This document shows positions 12,236-50,601 of a stretch of DNA of 64,000 nucleotides, piece after piece. The translations under genes and the position numbers were made by a program. The notes beneath the pieces were generated by a model that was not told where the DNA came from, did no database searches, and worked only from the letters and a program-made list of their open reading frames with translations. Position 1 is the stretch's first letter, and every line of letters begins with the position of its first letter. Source of the DNA: Candidatus Gallitreponema excrementavium (GTDB taxonomy: Bacteria > Spirochaetota > Spirochaetia > Treponematales > Treponemataceae); contig JADIMM010000080.1 in assembly GCA_017694795.1 (NCBI GenBank), forward strand, positions 13,217-77,216. The letters are read 5' to 3'.

Positions 12236-13054
12236 ATGGCACAAAACAACAAATACATAGCAGAGAGGGTATACAGCGGAGTCATCATTTTTCTTTGCCT
12301 TTTTCTTCTGGCAGTAAACATTATAATTGCATTTCCTGTTTTTTCGCCTAAAAACATAGCAGTGTTTGCAGCCTTGGGGCTTGTTTGTCTCAGCTGTCTT
12401 ATTTTTATAATCCGCCCCAAATGGTGGCCCTGCCTGGTAATCCCCCATTATCTTTTTTCACTAGGGGCTGCATTTTTAGGTATGATAGAACTTTCAGCCC
12501 TTACAGCATTGGCAGCGTTCGGATTGGCACTGATAAGGGGTTTTTTTCTGGAACACTGGAAAATAAAGGTTGGAATCGCAGTGGGGGTCTACCTTGCATT
12601 TATACTGACCCAGTTCAGGTTTTCTGTTATAACCGTATTCAGCACCCTGGCCTGCTCGATTTTTTTGTGCGGCATCCTGGTTGTTCTTGTCCTGGAACTG
12701 AGGGATTCGATAAGGGATGTCCTCCCTCCGGAAATCAGGATACCTGAAAAACCGGATTTAAAATCCGAGCTTATGCTTTGTGAGTATGATTTGAGCCAGA
12801 GAGAACTTTATGCCCTTTATGCAGTACTTTTCGGAAAAACATATTCCCAAATAGGGGAAACACTGTTCTGTTCTACTTCGACAGTAAAACAGATGATGCG
12901 TAAAATATACCAGCAGTTTGGGGTTTCAGACCGCTACCACTTTATTGATTTGGTTTCCCAGTACAAAATCGTACCACCCGACTGGTACAGGGTTCCTGAA
13001 GAATTTTCAGGAGAAATCCTGTTGCCAAAAGAAAAATCACCTGAAGATGAATAA
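12236..13054 (+). CDS. Polytopic membrane protein with a C-terminal LuxR/GerE-type HTH
   Basis: 272 aa with an AGAGGA SD. About 5 hydrophobic segments occupy the first 165 aa. The C-terminus LSQRELYALYAVLFGKTYSQIGETLFCSTSTVKQMMRKIYQQFGVSDRYHFIDLV matches the GerE/LuxR HTH pattern. Confidence 0.65.
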   Translation: MAQNNKYIAERVYSGVIIFLCLFLLAVNIIIAFPVFSPKNIAVFAALGLVCLSCLIFIIRPKWWPCLVIPHYLFSLGAAFLGMIELSALTALAAFGLALIRGFFLEHWKIKVGIAVGVYLAFILTQFRFSVITVFSTLACSIFLCGILVVLVLELRDSIRDVLPPEIRIPEKPDLKSELMLCEYDLSQRELYALYAVLFGKTYSQIGETLFCSTSTVKQMMRKIYQQFGVSDRYHFIDLVSQYKIVPPDWYRVPEEFSGEILLPKEKSPEDE

Positions 13055-13090
13055 AATCCAGGAAAAATCATGAAAAAGAGGAGTTTTTGC

Positions 13091-13141
13091 TTGACATACT
13101 TGTTAGTTTATACTAACTTATTTGTGTTAGTTACAACTAAC
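13091..13141 (+). promoter_or_regulatory. Promoter with two tandem palindromic operator-like sites
   Basis: TTGACA at 13091..13096, N17, then TAACTT at 13114..13119. Palindromes: GTTAGT-TTAT-ACTAAC at 13102..13117 and GTTAGT-TACA-ACTAAC at 13126..13141. Confidence 0.5.
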
Positions 13142-13207
13142 TTTATTAAGTAACTCTCCTAAAATACTTAGTAAACGGTTCAACCGGAAAAACCGGAAGG
13201 AGGATTC

Positions 13208-13777
13208 ATGAGTATCGAACAGCTTTTGGCCTATCACTGTGGTCCTGCATTAACCGGGTTAAAACCCTCTAACCTGGTAAGCTGCACTAAATACAGTACC
13301 AGAGATGTAATTGAAAAAAACATTCTGCTGAACAAGAGCTGTAATACTTACGGGGTATACTTTCATCCAATCGTCAGGCCTAAGGGTTCCGTCCTTATTT
13401 TTGTTTACAATAAACCTTTATTGGAACAAACCCTTAAAAATCCCAAGGCCATGAAGATTCTGGACAAAGAAGGATATACCCCTGAATCTTCCCTCGAGGA
13501 CAAAATCAAATTCCTAGAGAAGAGAATAAATTCAAGCCCGGACTTTCCCCACGAAATCGGGCTTTTCTTAGGGTATCCCGCTTCCGATGTTGCAGGATTT
13601 ATCAAAAACAAAGGGGAAAATTACAAACTTTGCGGATACTGGAAAGTTTACGGAAACAAGCGAAAGGCAAGACGCCTTTTTCGCAGGTATAACAGGTGCA
13701 GAAAGGACTGCCTCTTTCTTGTAACCGGAGGTAGACCGTTGGAAACCCTATGCCTGCTAAATAATAAAGCTGTATAA
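13208..13777 (+). CDS. DUF3793-like protein
   Basis: 189 aa. LAYHCGPALTGLKPSNLVSC and FPHEIGLFLGYPASDVAGFI...YWKVYG resemble the DUF3793 family as I recall it. GGAGG SD. Confidence 0.55.
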   Translation: MSIEQLLAYHCGPALTGLKPSNLVSCTKYSTRDVIEKNILLNKSCNTYGVYFHPIVRPKGSVLIFVYNKPLLEQTLKNPKAMKILDKEGYTPESSLEDKIKFLEKRINSSPDFPHEIGLFLGYPASDVAGFIKNKGENYKLCGYWKVYGNKRKARRLFRRYNRCRKDCLFLVTGGRPLETLCLLNNKAV

Positions 13778-13788
13778 CAGGAGGTTCT

Positions 13789-14208
13789 ATGAAAGCAGCA
13801 GTAATATATACAAGTTTAACCGGAAATACGGAAATTATGGCAGAATGTATTTACAAAGCCTACCGGGAAAAAAACGGACCTGAATCGGCAGAACTATTTC
13901 CTGCCGGTTCCATTACACCTGACAAGGCCCTTGACTACGGGATTCTGATTTTAGGCTGTCCTGCAATGGGGTCAGAAGTACTGGAAGAAGAAATCTTTGA
14001 GCCGTTTTTTTCCGGTATTGAACCAGGAATTAAAGGAAAAAAAGTTGCACTTTTTGGCTCTTACGGCTGGGGAGACGGACAGTGGATGAGAGACTGGGAA
14101 GAACGGTGCAGGGCCGCAGGAGCAGAAGTAGCTGAAACCCTCATTGTCCATGAAACTCCGGAGCCACAGGATCTTGAAAAATGTGTTGAATTTGCCGGAA
14201 AAATTTAA
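13789..14208 (+). CDS. Short-chain flavodoxin
   Basis: 139 aa. MKAAVIYTSLTGNTE (the T/S-x-T-G-x-T FMN phosphate loop) and GSYGWGDG. It lies 11 nt after the DUF3793 gene. Confidence 0.8.
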   Translation: MKAAVIYTSLTGNTEIMAECIYKAYREKNGPESAELFPAGSITPDKALDYGILILGCPAMGSEVLEEEIFEPFFSGIEPGIKGKKVALFGSYGWGDGQWMRDWEERCRAAGAEVAETLIVHETPEPQDLEKCVEFAGKI

Positions 14209-14217
14209 ATTTCCAAG

Positions 14218-14258
14218 ACAGCTGCCCTGCAAATAAAAATTACACAACGGGCAGCTGT
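14218..14258. terminator. Hairpin between convergent genes
   Basis: ACAGCTGCCC-N21-GGGCAGCTGT, a 10-bp perfect stem that overlaps the stop of the minus-strand gene. Confidence 0.45.
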
Positions 14259-15109
14259 TAATTCCATAAGTAATACCGGTGTATACCCCTTAAAAGCAAA
14301 ACAGTTCCAAGAACATAAAAAACCACTGCAATACAGACTATAACAAGGGAAGATGTAAGCAAAAGTCCGAGATATCCCAAAAACAGAAACAAAATTCCCC
14401 AGGCAGCTTTCCTGAATTCACCGGAAGTCTGGGCCTCAGTAGAACAATAAAAGGAAAAGAATGCAGCTCCTACACATAAAGCATAGAGAACAAAAAACAT
14501 GGATAAATAACCGGGTTTATGAATAAGACATTCAGTCCACATTCCGGTATCAAATGGTATATACAAGGCGAAAAAAAAGGAAATAGCTATTATTGAGGAA
14601 ATAATCTTTCCGGTTTGGGAAGAATTGCTTTGGGAACTAAAAATTCCGGTTCCAGCCAGTGCCAGCATTCCAAGAATACGGGAAAAAAGCAATATACGGG
14701 ACACAGAAAGAAGCAAATCCGGTGAAAGAGTATACAAAGCCTGAAAAGGAAAAACCATCCGGAAAACCTCCAGCACTGAAAAAACAGAAAAGAGAACATA
14801 AAAACTTATTTCCGAAGTCTGGGTTTTTTGAAACAAATTAACCACAAACAGGGAAGAAACAATTCCCCCTAACCCCAGAAACAACCCTGCCCCCATGGAA
14901 ACCCAGATTGAATTAAAGGGAACAAACCACCCCCATAATTTTCCGTTGTAAACAGGTAACAAACGGGAAACCTTATCAAAATTTATCAAACACAAAACAA
15001 AAAGGAACACACCAAGAAGAAACAGAACACTGCTCAATATAATTCCTGTAATTATCAATATATTTCTGTTTTTTATCGTCATACGGAATAATAATACATG
15101 GAAAACCAA
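14258..15109 (-). CDS. Polytopic membrane protein of unknown function
   Basis: 283-aa ORF, hydrophobic throughout. The track start is a TTG. An in-frame ATG at 15082 (MTIKNRN) is an alternative start. Confidence 0.5.
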   Translation of the reverse strand: MVFHVLLFRMTIKNRNILIITGIILSSVLFLLGVFLFVLCLINFDKVSRLLPVYNGKLWGWFVPFNSIWVSMGAGLFLGLGGIVSSLFVVNLFQKTQTSEISFYVLFSVFSVLEVFRMVFPFQALYTLSPDLLLSVSRILLFSRILGMLALAGTGIFSSQSNSSQTGKIISSIIAISFFFALYIPFDTGMWTECLIHKPGYLSMFFVLYALCVGAAFFSFYCSTEAQTSGEFRKAAWGILFLFLGYLGLLLTSSLVIVCIAVVFYVLGTVLLLRGIHRYYLWN

Positions 15110-18222: not shown

Positions 18223-20409
18223 ATGGCAGAATTACTTGCACCGGCTGGAACAATCGAAGCATTGGACGCAGCCTTTGGAGAAGGGGCTGATGCTGTTTAT
18301 TTGGGATTGAAGTTTTTTAATGCCAGAATGAGGACTGCAAATTTTGCATGGAACCAGTTTGAAGCAGCGGTGTATGCCGCCCATAAACGAAATAAAAAAA
18401 TTTTTGTAACCGTTAATACGGTTTTGGAAGAACGGGAAACCGAAAGAATGTACCGCTTCCTGGCCTATCTCAACTCTGTAAAACCAGACGGTATAATAGT
18501 CCAGGATTTAGGTGTAGCCAGAATGGCAGAAACACACTTTCCTGAATTAAGACTCCACGGTTCCACCCAGATGAATATTTCCAGTGCAAGGGGTGCAAAC
18601 CTTTTAAGCAAGGAGGGATTTAAAAGAGTTGTACTGTCAAGAGAGCTGAGTCTGCCGGAAATAAAAGCAGTAAAAGCCTCTACTAATATTGAGCTTGAGG
18701 TTTTTGTTCACGGAGCTCTTTGTGTTAGTGAGTCGGGATTATGTCTGTTTTCCAGTTATCTTGGAGGAAAATCAGCAAACCGTGGTATCTGTGCCCAGGC
18801 GTGCAGGAGACTTTACAGTGCAAAATCAGACAGTGAATTACAGGAGGGGTATTTTTTCTCACCCCACGATCTCCAGCTTATAGAAAAAATCCCGGATCTT
18901 ATTGAAGCAGGAATTTCGTCATTTAAGATTGAAGGAAGGATGAAAAGCGCCGAATATGTGGGGACTGTCGTGGCAGCCTACAGATATCTTATGGACAATT
19001 ACCAGAATGATAAAAAGGGGGCAATTGCAAGTGCAAAGCGGATTCTGGCAAATGACTTTGCAAGGGAAAAAACCCTATACTGGTACACAAATGACGACGG
19101 CTCGGAACCGGACAGTAAATATTTTCTAAATCCAAAACAAGCGGGAGGAACAGGGATTTTTCTCGGAAAAATTACTTCGGTAAAGAGGGATAAAAACAAT
19201 ATTTGTTACGGGGCAATAAAAAATTCAACCTATGATCCCCAGCAGGGGGATTCAATACGAATCCATAAAAGTGACGACACCAGAAGGGAAAGCCACAAAG
19301 TAAAGACTGTCAGCACTGACGAGAGAGGTACAATCTGGATTGATATTCCACCGAATTTTTCCCAAGGAGATTCTGTTTATCTGATACAAATGAAAACTTA
19401 CGGAAAAAGATACGAACATTTTCTGCCTCGGGATTTAACGCCATTCAGAAAACAGCCGGGAGCCCAACCCCTTCCGCAACCACCAAGATTTGAAGATGCT
19501 GAAAAAGAAAGCCCTTTCCTTCCGGAAGGACTTTATGTACAGGTATCCTCCATAAAAGATTTATATGCCTTACAGATAAAACGCCCTGTAAAAGCTATTT
19601 TGGAGTATAACACCGAGATAAAAAATACACTCCTTAACTCTGATGCACCTCTTCCATTTTCCAAAAAAGAAATCATTATCAGTCTGGAACCTTTCTTTCC
19701 GGAATCATTGGAAAACGAACTCTTTGTGAACATTAACAAATTAATTGAAATGGGTTATTACCACTGGATTGTAAACAATCCGGGGCATATATCCTTTTTC
19801 AAGCAGAAAAATGTTACCGTTATCGCCGGCCCTTATCTTTATGTATTTAACAGGTGGGCCCTTAACTGGCTGAATGACAAGAAAATTTACCAGTTTATAA
19901 GTCCCATCGAAAATTCAAGGCAAAATCTTGAAAAAACCGTAGACCCCAAAATAAGGAAAAATGCATTTGTCACGGTTTTTGCCTACCCGGCCCTGTTCAG
20001 GATGAGGTTCAAACTTCCTGCATATTATGACTTTGTCAACTTTTCCGATAAACAGGAAGGGGAATTCCGGACTTTGGTTACACCGGAAGGGTCTTTTGTT
20101 CTTCCGGAAAACCCTTTTTCAATCGTGGATAAACTGGCCTTTCTGAAAAACAGTGGATTTAAAAGATTTATCATTGACTTTTCCAAAGTTGAAGTAAACA
20201 AACAGTCTTACCGCAGATTGATTCAGAATATGGAAAAGGGTATTCCCCTTCCTGAAACTACAAGATTCAACTGGAAAGACGGTTTCTATAGTCCAGAACA
20301 CAGCCCGGCGGCCGCAAAAGAAGGAAAAACAGGAGATTCCGGTAAAAAACCAGCCATTAACAGGAACAGGGGCAAGTCCTCAAAAACAACTGGGAAAAGG
20401 AAAAAATGA
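18223..20409 (+). CDS. Peptidase U32 family protein (collagenase-like)
   Basis: The track ORF starts at a TTG at 18142. ATG 18223 (MAELLAPAGTIEALDAAFGEGADAVYLG) follows an AGGAG SD. E-x-F-x-H-G-A-L-C region: ELEVFVHGALCVSESGLC. The C-terminal tail is basic. Confidence 0.8.
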   Translation: MAELLAPAGTIEALDAAFGEGADAVYLGLKFFNARMRTANFAWNQFEAAVYAAHKRNKKIFVTVNTVLEERETERMYRFLAYLNSVKPDGIIVQDLGVARMAETHFPELRLHGSTQMNISSARGANLLSKEGFKRVVLSRELSLPEIKAVKASTNIELEVFVHGALCVSESGLCLFSSYLGGKSANRGICAQACRRLYSAKSDSELQEGYFFSPHDLQLIEKIPDLIEAGISSFKIEGRMKSAEYVGTVVAAYRYLMDNYQNDKKGAIASAKRILANDFAREKTLYWYTNDDGSEPDSKYFLNPKQAGGTGIFLGKITSVKRDKNNICYGAIKNSTYDPQQGDSIRIHKSDDTRRESHKVKTVSTDERGTIWIDIPPNFSQGDSVYLIQMKTYGKRYEHFLPRDLTPFRKQPGAQPLPQPPRFEDAEKESPFLPEGLYVQVSSIKDLYALQIKRPVKAILEYNTEIKNTLLNSDAPLPFSKKEIIISLEPFFPESLENELFVNINKLIEMGYYHWIVNNPGHISFFKQKNVTVIAGPYLYVFNRWALNWLNDKKIYQFISPIENSRQNLEKTVDPKIRKNAFVTVFAYPALFRMRFKLPAYYDFVNFSDKQEGEFRTLVTPEGSFVLPENPFSIVDKLAFLKNSGFKRFIIDFSKVEVNKQSYRRLIQNMEKGIPLPETTRFNWKDGFYSPEHSPAAAKEGKTGDSGKKPAINRNRGKSSKTTGKRKK

Positions 20410-48392: not shown

Positions 48393-48614
48393 AAAAAATC
48401 ACATAAAAAAGTCGCAAAATGCAGAAAACTCTTTATATATAATATATAGGGCTGATCGGCACCATATATTATTTTAATGAGGATTGAGCAAATGCCAGGA
48501 ACCGATTCTTTTTACAAAATAAAAAAAGTTATTGAATAGGTCAAAAAGTCATTTATTTCTGTCCTCGCCATGCAGAAAGATTCCGGCCGGATTTTTCTGT
48601 CCACAGGAGGTTTT

Positions 48615-49016
48615 ATGAACAGTTTAAATTCAATTCTTGTAGAAGGAAACATTGTTAGGGATCCCGTAGTAAAGGAAACGCCCAAAGGTACAAAAGTTTG
48701 TACATTTTCCCTTGCCTCTAACCGGTACTACAAAATCAATGACGGGTATGAGCAGGAAACATCATTCTTTGATGTTGAATCCTGGGGCCAGGAAGCCGAA
48801 AGATGTATGACAGAATGTACAAGAGGCAGAGGAATAAGGGTGGTAGGAAGACTAAAACAAGACAGATGGGTGGGTGCCGAGGGTAAAAATTACTCCCGGG
48901 TTAAAATTGTAGCTGACCACATCGAATACAAACCAAAACTTACAAAAACAAAGGAAAAAGAGCAGGAAAAACCTGCTGAAATGGAAACAGCTGAAAAAGA
49001 AGCCTTAGTCTTCTAA
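48615..49016 (+). CDS. ssb: Single-stranded DNA-binding protein
   Basis: ATG 48615 follows a GGAGG SD. MNSLNSILVEGNIVRDPVVKETPKGTKVCTFSLASNR is the SSB OB-fold N-terminus. The tail ends in ...EKEALVF. Confidence 0.8.
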   Translation: MNSLNSILVEGNIVRDPVVKETPKGTKVCTFSLASNRYYKINDGYEQETSFFDVESWGQEAERCMTECTRGRGIRVVGRLKQDRWVGAEGKNYSRVKIVADHIEYKPKLTKTKEKEQEKPAEMETAEKEALVF

Positions 49017-49025
49017 TCAGATGCC

Positions 49026-49057
49026 GGAGCCGCATTTTACACCCAATATGCGGCTCC
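49026..49057 (+). terminator. Hairpin downstream of ssb
   Basis: GGAGCCGCAT-N12-ATGCGGCTCC, a 10-bp perfect stem. No T-run follows. Confidence 0.4.
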
Positions 49058-49119
49058 CCAAGGCTGTGCATTTAATAATAACGGCACTATTTTTTATTCA
49101 AAATAATTGCCGCCAAGTA

Positions 49120-49148
49120 TTGACTTTTTTTTTCCTGTTTTGTATAGT
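49120..49148 (+). promoter_or_regulatory. Sigma70-type promoter of tRNA-Asp
   Basis: TTGACT-N17-TATAGT, ending 10 nt before the tRNA 5' end. Confidence 0.6.
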
Positions 49149-49158
49149 TTCAGCATCT

Positions 49159-49232
49159 GGGGGCGTAGCGAAGCTGGTTATCGCGTCGGCCTGTCACGCC
49201 GAAGATCGCGGGTTCGAGCCCCGTCGCTCCCG
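49159..49232 (+). tRNA. tRNA-Asp (GTC)
   Basis: Hand-folded cloverleaf: acceptor GGGGGCG/CGCTCCC, D-stem GCGA/TCGC, anticodon arm TCGGC-CTGTCAC-GCCGA, T-arm GCGGG-TTCGAGC-CCCGT. CCA is not encoded. Confidence 0.9.
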
Positions 49233-49236
49233 AAAA

Positions 49237-49269
49237 AACCGTTTTGGATGTATCCAGAACGGTTTTTTA
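49237..49269 (+). terminator. Rho-independent terminator after tRNA-Asp
   Basis: AACCGTTTTGGAT-gt-ATCCAGAACGGTT (one G-U pair) followed by TTTTAT. Confidence 0.7.
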
Positions 49270-49362
49270 TTCAGTGCCGTAGCAGGGTTCGTAAAACGGC
49301 ATTAAGAAAAGAACCCTGATTTATATATATGCTGTTCTGGCTTTTTCAGGACAGCTCTTAAA

Positions 49363-49434
49363 CGGGCAGTAGCGCAGGGGTAGCGCGCTTGGTTCGGGAC
49401 TAAGAAGTCGGGGGTTCAAATCCCCCCTGCCCGA
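49363..49434 (+). tRNA. tRNA-Pro (CGG)
   Basis: Hand-folded: acceptor CGGGCAG/CTGCCCG, D-stem GCGC/GCGC, anticodon arm CTTGG-TTCGGGA-CTAAG, T-arm GGGGG-TTCAAAT-CCCCC. CCA is not encoded. Confidence 0.9.
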
Positions 49435-49568
49435 TAAAAAAATCAGGACAATATAATTTGGTTTAAGGGAAATTCAAAGTACCAGGAAAAAAATTGCTTT
49501 GCGTAAGCAAAGTGCTTTGCGTAAGCAAAGCGGGATTTGAACCTGCCTTTGTAAAAAGGCAGGAGGGG
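49429..49568 (+). repeat. Direct repeat copy 1 (140 bp), starting within the last 6 nt of tRNA-Pro
   Basis: About 95 percent identical to 49659..49799. It contains three GTAA-capped hairpins at 49496..49513, 49514..49531 and 49542..49563. Confidence 0.85.
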
Positions 49569-49658
49569 CCCCGGAGGGGCAAATCCCCCCCTTTGCAAAG
49601 ATGGTTTTGTGGTCATTTGTTGCTTGTTTTGCAGCAAGATTAACTCCTCTGCAAAGAG

Positions 49659-49799
49659 GCCCGATAAAAAAAATCAAGACAATATAATTTGGTTTAAGGG
49701 AAATTCAAAGTATCAGGAAAAAAATTGCTTTGCGTAAGCAAATTGCTTTGCTTACGCAAAGCGGGATTTGAACCTGCCTTTGCAAAAAGGCAGGAGGGG
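49659..49799 (+). repeat. Direct repeat copy 2 (141 bp)
   Basis: It begins with GCCCGATAAAAAAAA like copy 1. I count about 7 differences, including the loop-flipped hairpin at 49745..49762. Confidence 0.85.
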
Positions 49800-49854
49800 T
49801 AAATAGCTTTTCCAAAAAAAATCAGGTACGAAGAGACTAAAAGCCCCCCGAAAA

Positions 49855-50601
49855 CTAACCCAGTTGGCATCTGATATTTCTTTCTGTTTCAGGATCCCGG
49901 AAATTAAGGGTTACGGCATATAATTCCAAAAATGGGGATTTTTCCCCTCCATAAAGTTCATCCCCAATTATGGGATAAGAACACCATGCCAAATGACTTC
50001 TTATCTGATGCCTGAATCCCTTTACCAACCTTATCCGAAACAAATATTTTTGACGGCATTCATCCACCGAAAGAATATCCGTAGTATAAATATTTTTTTC
50101 TGTCTTTTTGATTATAAGCCTGTTTTCTTCATCCAGTCTCACGGGTCTAACGGCCTGCCTGCCCTTTCCGTAATAACGGAATCTGCTCTGAATTGAACAG
50201 GGGCAGTCTTTTTTATCCAAGAAATAAAATGCAGGGGTTGGAAAACCTTCCGGAATATCATTTACACCGTTTTTCTTTGTTACTGCTATATATTCCTTAC
50301 AAATCCTGCCGCTTTTTTGCTCATTTATAAAAAAACCGGCAGTCTTTTTATTTCTTGCAATAAGAACAAGACCATAGGTTCCGTTGTCAAGCCTGTGAAT
50401 TACCCCTCCTTCATCTTTTTTTCTGGTATCCGGTGATGCCTCCAGTACCTCAGGGTAAGACTTTGAAACAAAATCCAGCAGACTGTATTTTTCGGAACCG
50501 GTAACAGGGACAGTAGGAATTCCGTGAGGCTTCCGGGCAACCAAAAAGTTTTTGTTTTCCAAAACTATTTCCGGAATATTTTCAAAACAGGGAATATTCA
50601 A
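49855..50601 (-). CDS. RluA-family pseudouridine synthase
   Basis: 248 aa. GVIHRLDNGTYGLVLIA (catalytic Asp motif) and HQIRSHL. Confidence 0.75.
   Translation of the reverse strand: MNIPCFENIPEIVLENKNFLVARKPHGIPTVPVTGSEKYSLLDFVSKSYPEVLEASPDTRKKDEGGVIHRLDNGTYGLVLIARNKKTAGFFINEQKSGRICKEYIAVTKKNGVNDIPEGFPTPAFYFLDKKDCPCSIQSRFRYYGKGRQAVRPVRLDEENRLIIKKTEKNIYTTDILSVDECRQKYLFRIRLVKGFRHQIRSHLAWCSYPIIGDELYGGEKSPFLELYAVTLNFRDPETERNIRCQLG

Follow-up and report, generated by a model that had tools for sequence, protein, structure and literature searches.

A 64,000-nt stretch of the genome of Candidatus Gallitreponema excrementavium (contig JADIMM010000080.1, positions 13,217 to 77,216 of the forward strand; hereafter the window) contains a proline tRNA gene, tRNA-Pro(CGG), whose 3′ end and trailer are repeated downstream over 371 bp. 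This region most probably represents two tandemly arrayed and partly decayed units of a tRNA-matched trailer element. The family in question consists of a conserved folded core that lies 3′ of a tRNA gene and is closed by pairing between two copies, one inverted and one direct, of the 3′ end of that tRNA. It is widespread in Treponemataceae, where about half of the genomes searched carry it, and it is apparently undescribed: literature searches returned no published description of such a family, and no Rfam family matched full-length elements at E values up to 10.

A segment of ~140 nt lies within the tRNA-Pro trailer in several genera; it starts with the reverse complement of the last ~20 nt of the tRNA and ends with a direct copy of 16–19 nt, extending from C56 of the T-loop to the discriminator; in these relatives, the element is followed by a repeat of the trailer and terminator of the tRNA. 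A preliminary description of the window had proposed a covariance model based on tRNA-Pro trailers from related genomes. Aligning 12 elements from relatives, associated with five tRNA types, gave a multi-branched fold of 34 base pairs, 26 of which showed compensatory changes. The covariance model built from this alignment (R1) matched 76 of the 151 Treponemataceae genomes and was represented in 18 of the 24 genera, with no match in the Treponemataceae genus that contains a 1.1-Mb genome. Genera g4, g5, g6 and g11 carry the element; of 15 genomes each searched in g24 and g17, none and one, respectively, had it. It also matched other Spirochaetota families and some metagenome-assembled genomes (MAGs) labelled Desulfovibrionaceae or Deltaproteobacteria (Desulfobacterota); named records with matches were Treponema spp., Brucepastera parasyntrophica and Gracilinema caldarium. 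Cultured carriers include Treponema primitia and B. parasyntrophica RmG11, in which the elements follow tRNA-Ser(GGA) and tRNA-Ser(UGA). Across 57 distinct sequences, paired cells made up 92.7%, compared with 64% in shuffled alignments and ~45% in controls with slid partners, and both-sided changes now extended to 31 of the 34 pairs. Members of the family include L102:1501-1642, L103:1501-1641 and 1878-2037, and L149:2470-2610.

The match between element and host tRNA is the second defining property of the family. A tRNA gene on the same strand lies upstream within the 1.5-kb flank of 47 of the 57 elements, and 32 of these 47 have at least 16 consecutive nucleotides in common with the 3′ end of that tRNA. 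At least 15 tRNA types serve as hosts, and the arms vary with them; even at tRNA-Pro genes, one genome has the pair GGGCAGGGGGG/CCCCCCTGCCC and another GGGCAAGTGGG/CCCACTTGCCC. The copy continues into the trailer where CCA is not encoded and includes CCA where it is. The same tRNA matching was seen in the Desulfobacterota-labelled MAGs and in short-form arrays behind tRNA-Leu(CAA), and the orientation of the element relative to the tRNA is constant.

Between the arms, the core carries a conserved module, GCCGACC-loop-GGGAGG(AAGAG), in helix P2, and a GG(C)GG motif followed by CCCC-NNN-GGGG just before the 3′ arm. Its loops are conserved as well: P3 reads A(N)GGAU in 37 of 48 sequences, P5 reads AGGAY or ACGAW, and P2a reads GAAN. 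The P3 and P5 loops of the A(N)GGAU and AGGAY types sit in short G+C stems (for example, CCAUGGAUGG and ACAGGAUGU). The purine-rich loops are strand-specific, and no TYNC loops occur.

Units often stand head to tail along with the tRNA trailer, and their number differs between genomes. In one genome (G025, from the same genus as G003), the trailer of tRNA-Pro(CGG) is empty, with a terminator followed by the next gene (L270:440-560), whereas its congeners have one or two elements at this place, an indication that the element was gained or lost within the genus. In a further genus (g4), a long palindrome spans the tRNA end, the terminator and the inverted arm, and terminators separate the units. 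Terminator-free arrays inside a tRNA operon were found in the Gallitreponema genome itself and in one relative (G008).

The terminator-free array of the Gallitreponema genome lies outside the window. On contig C69, R1 detected eight tandem elements (12825-14460; loci L093 and L100), which are interleaved with genes for tRNA-Ser(UGA), tRNA-Arg(GCG), tRNA-Ser(CGA), tRNA-Ser(GCU) and tRNA-Ser(GGA). tRNA-Ser(CGA) is followed by five near-identical units; no terminators separate the C69 units, each of which closes with a tRNA-Ser 3′-end copy. These units are a short form of 92–107 nt that lacks hairpin P3 and that also occurs in arrays of other genera. Four of seven C69 units (u3, u5, gct and gga; columns 78-90 of alignment A3) contain a 13-nt hairpin insert, GCCCTAGTAAGGGC, in that part of the 3′ arm which is copied from the T-loop, with loss of the ATTCG/CGAAT pairs of the closing stem. 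At the end of the C69 array, a truncated unit is followed by a terminator and, next, by a sequence resembling signal recognition particle RNA (~14480-14600).

A second covariance model, built from the seven best C69 units (R2), connects the window to this family. Searched against both strands of the 64 kb, R2 had a single match, 49523-49598 on the plus strand (27.7 bits; true long-form members score 26–37 bits with this model), and R1, run without filters on 3 kb, had its best match at the same place (16.2 bits); the accompanying E values, 2.8e-5 and 5e-4, respectively, come from rough calibrations. This 76-nt mini-element starts 88 nt 3′ of tRNA-Pro(CGG) on the same strand. In a global alignment with a C69 unit, positions 49520-49600 scored 7.5 standard deviations above shuffled sequences, the shared parts being the 5′ arm, the GG(C)GG-CCCC-G(G/T)A-GGGG stretch and the 3′ arm. 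Specifically, GGAGGGG CCCC GGA GGGG CAAATCC in the window corresponds to GAAGGCGG CCCC G(T/G)A GGGG on C69, and the 3′ core feature of the family, GG(C)GG plus CCCC-NNN-GGGG ahead of the 3′ arm, is therefore present in the window element.

The 5′ arm of the mini-element, GGGATTTGAAC, is the reverse complement of GTTCAAATCCC in tRNA-Pro and recurs at 49763-49773; with its flank, GCGGGATTTGAACC, it matches the corresponding arm of the tRNA-Pro element in G008 at all 14 nt, and in both genomes this arm lacks the acceptor part. The closing stem pairs GCAAAG.GGGATTTG with CAAATCCC...CTTTGC. The T-stem of tRNA-Pro reads CCCGC in G008 and CCCCC(C) in the window. Because the 3′ arm in the window also reads CCCCC(C) and the 5′ arm keeps GCGGG, apparently an older T-stem, the direct arm has tracked the change in the tRNA and the inverted arm has not. 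A survey of all 44 tRNA genes of the genome, in which copies of at least 10 nt were counted, found inverted plus direct copies of a tRNA's own 3′ end downstream only at tRNA-Pro(CGG) and in the tRNA-Ser cluster. The tRNA-Asn(GUU) gene on contig C16 (12360-12433, minus strand) is followed after 125 nt by a 12-nt inverted copy of its 3′ end, GCTCCCCCGGCC, which has no direct counterpart and might represent a further remnant or belong to a terminator.

Table 1 Features of the tRNA-Pro(CGG) region and its downstream array, in window coordinates
Feature	Position	Strand	Basis
tRNA-Asp(GUC) gene, upstream of tRNA-Pro	49158-49233	+	ARAGORN
Bidirectional terminator hairpin belonging to tRNA-Asp(GUC)	49233-49268		Inverted-repeat search
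tRNA-Pro(CGG) gene, CCA not encoded; host tRNA copied downstream	49363-49434	+	ARAGORN; Rfam tRNA, 66.5 bits
D1, tRNA-Pro 3′ segment from T-loop C56 to the discriminator, CAAATCCCCCCTGCCCGA; template for downstream copies	49417-49434	+	Sequence
Repeat copy 1	49429-49568	+	Repeat search
Trailer after tRNA-Pro, ACAATATAATTTGG...		+	Sequence
Unit 1 trailer, full extent, between tRNA end and 5′ arm	49435-49531	+	
Unit 1 trailer, A7 run (49487-49493), then tandem hairpins (49497-49512, 49514-49531)	49487-49531	-	Terminator scan; folds
Mini-element, three-way junction, 76 nt	49523-49598	+	R2, 27.7 bits; R1, 16.2 bits; alignment z 7.5; fold z -3.5
5′ arm, inverted copy of tRNA-Pro T-loop/T-stem, GGGATTTGAAC	49532-49542	+	Inverted-repeat search
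P2 hairpin, CCTGCCTTT-GTAA-AAAGGCAGG, in the place of the family's P2 and GCCGACC-loop-GGGAGG module	49542-49563	+	Covariance model alignments
P4 hairpin, CCCC-GGA-GGGG, same as in C69 units	49569-49579	+	Covariance model alignment; pairwise alignment
3′ arm, direct copy of tRNA-Pro T-loop/T-stem, CAAATCCCCCC, 11 nt identical to D1	49580-49590	+	Direct 11-mer at +145
67-nt stretch between 3′ arm and tRNA tip copy, bounded by CTTTGCAAAGA and CTCTGCAAAGAG	49592-49658	+	Sequence
Repeat copy 2, 95% identical to copy 1, starting with tRNA tip copy GCCCGAT (49659-49665)	49659-49799	+	Repeat search
Unit 2 trailer, A7 run, then perfect 16-bp hairpin (49727-49762)	49716-49762	-	Inverted repeats; terminator scan; fold z -8.65, minus strand
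Truncated second element, 5′ arm (49763-49773) and P2 with GCAA loop (49773-49794)	49763-49799	+	Sequence; inverted repeats
Third copy of trailer start, AAAAAAATCAGG	49815-49826	+	Repeat search
RluA-family pseudouridine synthase gene, convergent, next after array	49855-50601	-	Open reading frame list; Pfam PF00849, E 2.9e-18

The region contains a pair of 140-bp direct repeats (Table 1), and here the repeat search agreed with the preliminary description, which had reported two tRNA-Pro-anchored copies of ~95% identity. Positions 49436-49568 and 49667-49799 align gap-free at 95% identity with an offset of 231 bp. An exact 14-mer, GCCCGATAAAAAAA, occurs at 49429 and 49659, and the sole gap between the copies is a run of seven versus eight adenines. 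The final 6 nt of tRNA-Pro(CGG) are GCCCGA (49429-49434), and past this tip the identity of the copies continues for 133 nt into the trailer.

Every hairpin listed in that description was recovered by sequence inspection, inverted-repeat search and folding. Copy 1 holds CTTTGC-GTAA-GCAAAG (49497-49512), GCTTTGC-GTAA-GCAAAGC (49514-49531) and, as a third hairpin, CCTGCCTTT-GTAA-AAAGGCAGG (49542-49563); the spacer adds CTCT-GCAA-AGAG (49647-49658), and copy 2 has CCTGCCTTT-GCAA-AAAGGCAGG (49773-49794). The loop of the second small hairpin in copy 2 is TTAC, which is not a GNRA loop, and the two small hairpins of this copy are fused into one perfect 16-bp hairpin (49727-49762) with the loop TTGC. 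Three changes in copy 2, GTAA to TTAC plus one loop base, convert an imperfect 14/16 inverted repeat into the perfect 16-bp one. Thus, the statement that almost every loop is a GNRA tetraloop describes copy 1 and fails in copy 2, and the GNRA loops amount to few independent observations because the units duplicate one another.

The two copies fall into place once they are read as units of an array, which reaches beyond the extent given in the preliminary description, since the inverted and direct T-arm copies belong to the same structure. Its period runs from the tRNA tip through a trailer of ~95 nt with hairpins to the inverted arm and the P2 hairpin, and the 140-bp unit corresponds to this period and is not a functional RNA in its own right. 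In unit 1, P4 and the direct arm follow and complete the 76-nt mini-element, which has lost the central module. Unit 2 breaks off at 49799 without P4 and without a 3′ arm, and R2 finds no match there. Arrays in relatives and on C69 likewise finish in a 5′-partial unit, in which the 5′ arm is present and the core is broken. Further downstream, the start of the trailer appears a third time as the 12-mer AAAAAAATCAGG, for which ~0.002 occurrences are expected per 400 nt and which occurs 17 times in the genome, on both strands; the copy at 49815 may be the original trailer, displaced downstream.

Several observations weigh against placing the window copy in this family. The window element lacks the GCCGACC-loop-GGGAGG module and has a GTAA-capped 9-bp hairpin instead; for this reason, we regard it as derived by reduction or decay and as atypical of the family, and it is probably a relic. 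The R1 score of 16.2 bits would correspond to an E value of ~0.4 genome-wide, and the whole-genome R2 search did not list the window match, presumably owing to its first-look filter. The contiguous copy in the 3′ arm comprises 11 nt, compared with 16–19 nt in the family, and it lacks the acceptor part: the tip, GCCCGAT, follows 67 nt further on, at 49659. An array at this locus therefore requires an insertion or rearrangement, and the intervening stretch (49592-49658) has no copy elsewhere in its own genome and none in 60 relatives. A metagenome search with the neighbouring RluA-like protein gave a best full-length match of 29% identity, and no ancestral or empty site was found in it. As for the family as a whole, its helices contain 52 G-U and 43 A-C cells (18 and 8, respectively, in inner helices); G-U barely exceeds A-C, a ratio that would be compatible with either strand and with RNA as well as single-stranded DNA. 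In genus g4, an intrinsic terminator stands between tRNA and element, arguing against efficient co-transcription in that genus.

The near balance of G-U and A-C cells is also the starting point of a rival explanation, in which the element is a selfish hairpin or palindrome, or a recombination site made of folded single-stranded DNA, that colonizes tRNA 3′ ends, so that the window array would be dead selfish DNA. A DNA-level element would fit the tandem amplification, the truncated terminal units, the empty trailer of G025 within an otherwise occupied genus, and the long palindrome and inter-unit terminators of g4. It is at odds with the conserved, strand-specific purine-rich loops (A(N)GGAU and GAAN, without TYNC), with the constant orientation to the tRNA and with the terminator-free arrays inside tRNA operons, all of which fit RNA. 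No transposase or recombinase gene was seen beside family elements in a search that was not systematic. On balance, we regard a purely DNA-level element as rather unlikely.

A further rival is a plain local tandem duplication, in which slippage doubled a 231-bp terminator region between the convergent tRNA-Pro and rluA-like genes, the hairpins serve simply as terminators and the resemblance to the family is coincidental. The unit is indeed confined to this locus, its copies are 95% identical and arranged head to tail, the minus strand carries hairpin-plus-T7 sites and the R1 score is low. Coincidence would nevertheless have to explain why the sole R2 match in the window falls here, on the strand of the tRNA; why inverted and direct T-arm 11-mers stand in the right order and spacing, as at no other tRNA outside the Ser cluster; why 14 nt of the 5′ arm are identical to the orthologous element of G008; and why many relatives show the same array architecture. 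These points make a chance duplication improbable.

The preliminary description had also raised the scar of repeated integrase activity, according to which insertions and losses by a tyrosine integrase at tRNA-Pro left attachment site (att) fragments and arm remnants behind. The direct repeats start inside the tRNA 3′ end, a copy running from T-loop to T-stem lies at 49580-49590, and tRNA-Pro(CGG) is an integration site in relatives, since in G012 a tyrosine integrase split into two open reading frames (135 aa, and 198 aa with PF00589 at E 3.6e-11) directly adjoins this gene (L037, 326-1409, minus strand). A 48-nt tRNA-Pro 3′ fragment ~42 kb from the gene in G064 adds to this case. The fragment (contig C2, 762147-762194) has two trailer elements just past it, the tRNA-Asp/tRNA-Pro genes being at 804264-804528, an arrangement that looks like an island inserted into the tRNA, displacing the old end and its elements. 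In the window, however, the 231 bp between the repeat starts contain no integrase, no cargo and no open reading frame of more than 70 aa, and the identity of the copies extends 130 nt past any plausible crossover segment. An inverted tRNA-end copy and a covarying core are foreign to att scars, and the direct arm has no T-stem 5′ half upstream, so a complete att-like site is missing. An integrase scar is, accordingly, highly improbable.

Least credible of all is the view that each 140-bp copy is itself a GNRA-rich structured non-coding RNA released from the tRNA-Pro trailer. Copy 1 does have GNRA loops on the plus strand, its hairpins fold better than shuffled sequences, and no plus-strand terminator intervenes. 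Yet folding is equal on the minus strand, copy 2 has its loop flipped to TTAC, and the part with homologues extends from the end of copy 1 into the spacer. The trailer itself, including the GCTTTGC hairpins, had no homologue in the 60 relatives or in the phages, viral contigs, genomes and metagenomes searched, and hence has no covariation support. The unit as a whole gave no match in the 60 relatives or GenBank phages and, as an exact pattern, none in IMG/VR, species-representative genomes or JGI metagenomes. An Rfam covariance search of 48500-50500, with E values up to 10, returned two tRNAs and chance microRNA-like hairpin matches, with no non-coding RNA family for the repeats. What stands of the proposed tRNA-trailer RNA is the segment 49523-49598, which belongs to a covarying structured family and lies on the tRNA strand; the 140-bp repeat is not the functional unit.

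Nor is the unit a generic dispersed repeat: a BLAST search of the 2.47-Mb genome returned only the two copies and their internal palindrome, and we therefore exclude a repetitive extragenic palindromic (REP) sequence or a miniature inverted-repeat transposable element (MITE). With no further copies and no transposase nearby, the same goes for elements of the IS200/IS605 type. Other candidates were also rejected. The 90-bp spacer does not qualify as a decayed second tRNA, since its resemblance to tRNA-Pro is not colinear and comprises only a T-arm-like 19-mer plus the tip match. The T-arm-like motif of a supposed minus-strand tRNA remnant is accounted for by the 5′ arm of the element. An integron attC site would come with cassettes, none of which were seen, and the arms match tRNAs. 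Palindrome growth from a terminator does not apply, as the window trailer as a whole is not palindromic, unlike the tRNA end, terminator and inverted arm of g4.

Returning to the array of tRNA-matched trailer elements, its history and use can be sketched in a few steps. The tRNA end and its trailer are copied together at the DNA level, in a number of units that varies between genomes, and arrays could expand and contract through unequal recombination or slippage involving the tRNA-end copies. Transcription of the window array together with tRNA-Pro is predicted from sequence, because no terminator precedes it on the plus strand: in keeping with the preliminary description, the promoter and terminator scan found no terminator-like site on that strand in 49435-49800. 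A minihelix is a substrate for RNase P, RNase Z and the CCA-adding enzyme. By analogy, the closing stem would imitate the acceptor and T stems in their stacked form, and RNase P and RNase Z could then excise the element. The flipped loop of copy 2 would reflect one template-switch event that perfected a quasi-palindrome.

The same DNA may do a different job on the other strand. Read on the minus strand, the unit 1 trailer gives hairpin, hairpin and T7, resembling a terminator, and it occupies the position held by the tRNA terminator in relatives. The strongest minus-strand terminator-like sites are 49762-49727 followed by AATTTTTTT and 49512-49497 followed by CAATTTTTTT; the former, in unit 2, is the first strong site after the convergent rluA-like gene. 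We infer that the GCTTTGC hairpins with their minus-strand T7 runs serve as terminators for this pseudouridine synthase operon, whose transcript would end within the repeat region. Mechanically called open reading frames of 58–67 aa overlap the repeats on the minus strand, within the duplicated hairpin DNA.

For the family at large, we tentatively envisage a class of structured elements whose closing helix is rewritten to match the host tRNA, whose copying or homing is tied to the T-loop and whose RNA carries a tRNA-like handle, with arrays acting as protein sponges expressed from tRNA promoters; this is possible, though speculative. CsrA-type proteins bind hairpins with GGA loops, which the A(N)GGAU loops of the family resemble. 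P4 of the window mini-element carries a GGA loop.

A trailer repeat has thus led to a large structured family without an Rfam entry, one that is matched to its host tRNA and amplifies in arrays within tRNA trailers, which are usually regarded as throw-away sequence. Interest rests on this family, the window copy being a reduced and partly broken member. To our knowledge, almost no small RNAs are known in spirochaetes; if the elements are RNAs, they would represent a new route to small RNAs through tRNA promoters and tRNA-processing enzymes in these bacteria. Should they act at the DNA level instead, they would constitute a novel type of selfish element directed at tRNA ends with no integrase involved. 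The window offers a snapshot of decay, in which the asymmetry of the arms suggests DNA-level homogenization by the neighbouring tRNA gene, as the direct arm followed the change in the tRNA sequence and the inverted arm did not. For annotation, arrays of this type should not be labelled integration scars or pseudo-tRNAs.

The pairing of tRNA-Asp with tRNA-Pro is kept across Treponemataceae relatives, and the 3′ strand of the relatives' elements begins at the same tRNA position, C56, as segment D1. Inside the 3′ end of the rluA-like open reading frame lies a palindrome, CCAAAAATGGGGATTTTTCCCC...CCCCAATTATGGG (49925-49974), with a minus-strand terminator-like site and weak R1 matches on both strands (11–12 bits), which are probably due to chance. 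Elsewhere in the window (19397-19479, minus strand), ARAGORN called an 83-nt tRNA-Arg(UCU) whose 3′ end, GTTCGTATCTTTTTCCGTAAG, is unusual; the genome also has another tRNA-Arg(UCU), which is of normal length, and the call may be a pseudo-tRNA or false.

Among known systems, the E. coli tyrT locus has a similar layout, each of its ~178-bp repeats beginning with a copy of the tRNA-Tyr 3′ end. As in the window, these repeats are direct, tandem and immediately 3′ of a tRNA gene. We know of no inverted tRNA-end copy closing a conserved core in rtT, the RNA from these repeats, nor of re-matching to many tRNAs. The tyrT distal repeats follow the tRNA in tandem and are co-transcribed with it, and the rtT RNA is released during processing, as summarized in PMC4986893, citing Bosl and Kersten 1991. 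By contrast with rtT (RF00391), which is enterobacterial and pasteurellacean, the present family belongs to Spirochaetota, and the window region shows no sequence match to it, nor any Rfam match in 48500-50500 even at E values up to 10. A functional RNA cut from a tRNA trailer by the tRNA-processing machinery is exemplified by the 3′ETS-leuZ sponge of E. coli (PMC8166272, citing Lalaouna et al. 2015). That RNA is 53 nt long, single-copy and Hfq-dependent and has no tRNA-end copies, and for the present element function and processing are only postulated.

A parallel for the closing helix is provided by tRNA-like processing signals, as in plant mitochondrial t-elements, mascRNA and minihelix substrates. 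By analogy with these, a helix that imitates acceptor and T stems, together with the discriminator, could direct RNase P and RNase Z; here, however, the 3′ strand is literally a DNA-level copy of the neighbouring tRNA end plus trailer, and the helix continues into the T-loop. Williams reportedly described in 2002 that tyrosine integrases crossing over in the T-loop leave direct repeats of tRNA 3′ ends at islands and prophages. The direct copy from C56 of the T-loop to the tRNA 3′ end and beyond, and integration at tRNA-Pro(CGG) in relatives, recall such repeats, which differ in that the present locus has no integrase or cargo, that its direct repeat is not limited to a shared att segment, and that units of 110–230 bp occur in tandem arrays with an inverted copy and a covarying core. 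Quasi-palindrome template-switch mutation turns imperfect inverted repeats into perfect ones, and the changes from copy 1 to copy 2 perfect the 14/16 repeat in one concerted pattern; this would account for the loop flip only, not for the array. Finally, REP sequences, bacterial interspersed mosaic elements (BIMEs) and MITEs are likewise hairpin-rich intergenic repeats at gene 3′ ends that are sometimes tandem, but the 140-bp unit is not dispersed, and the family to which its locus most probably belongs is tied to tRNA genes in one orientation, with arms that change with the tRNA.

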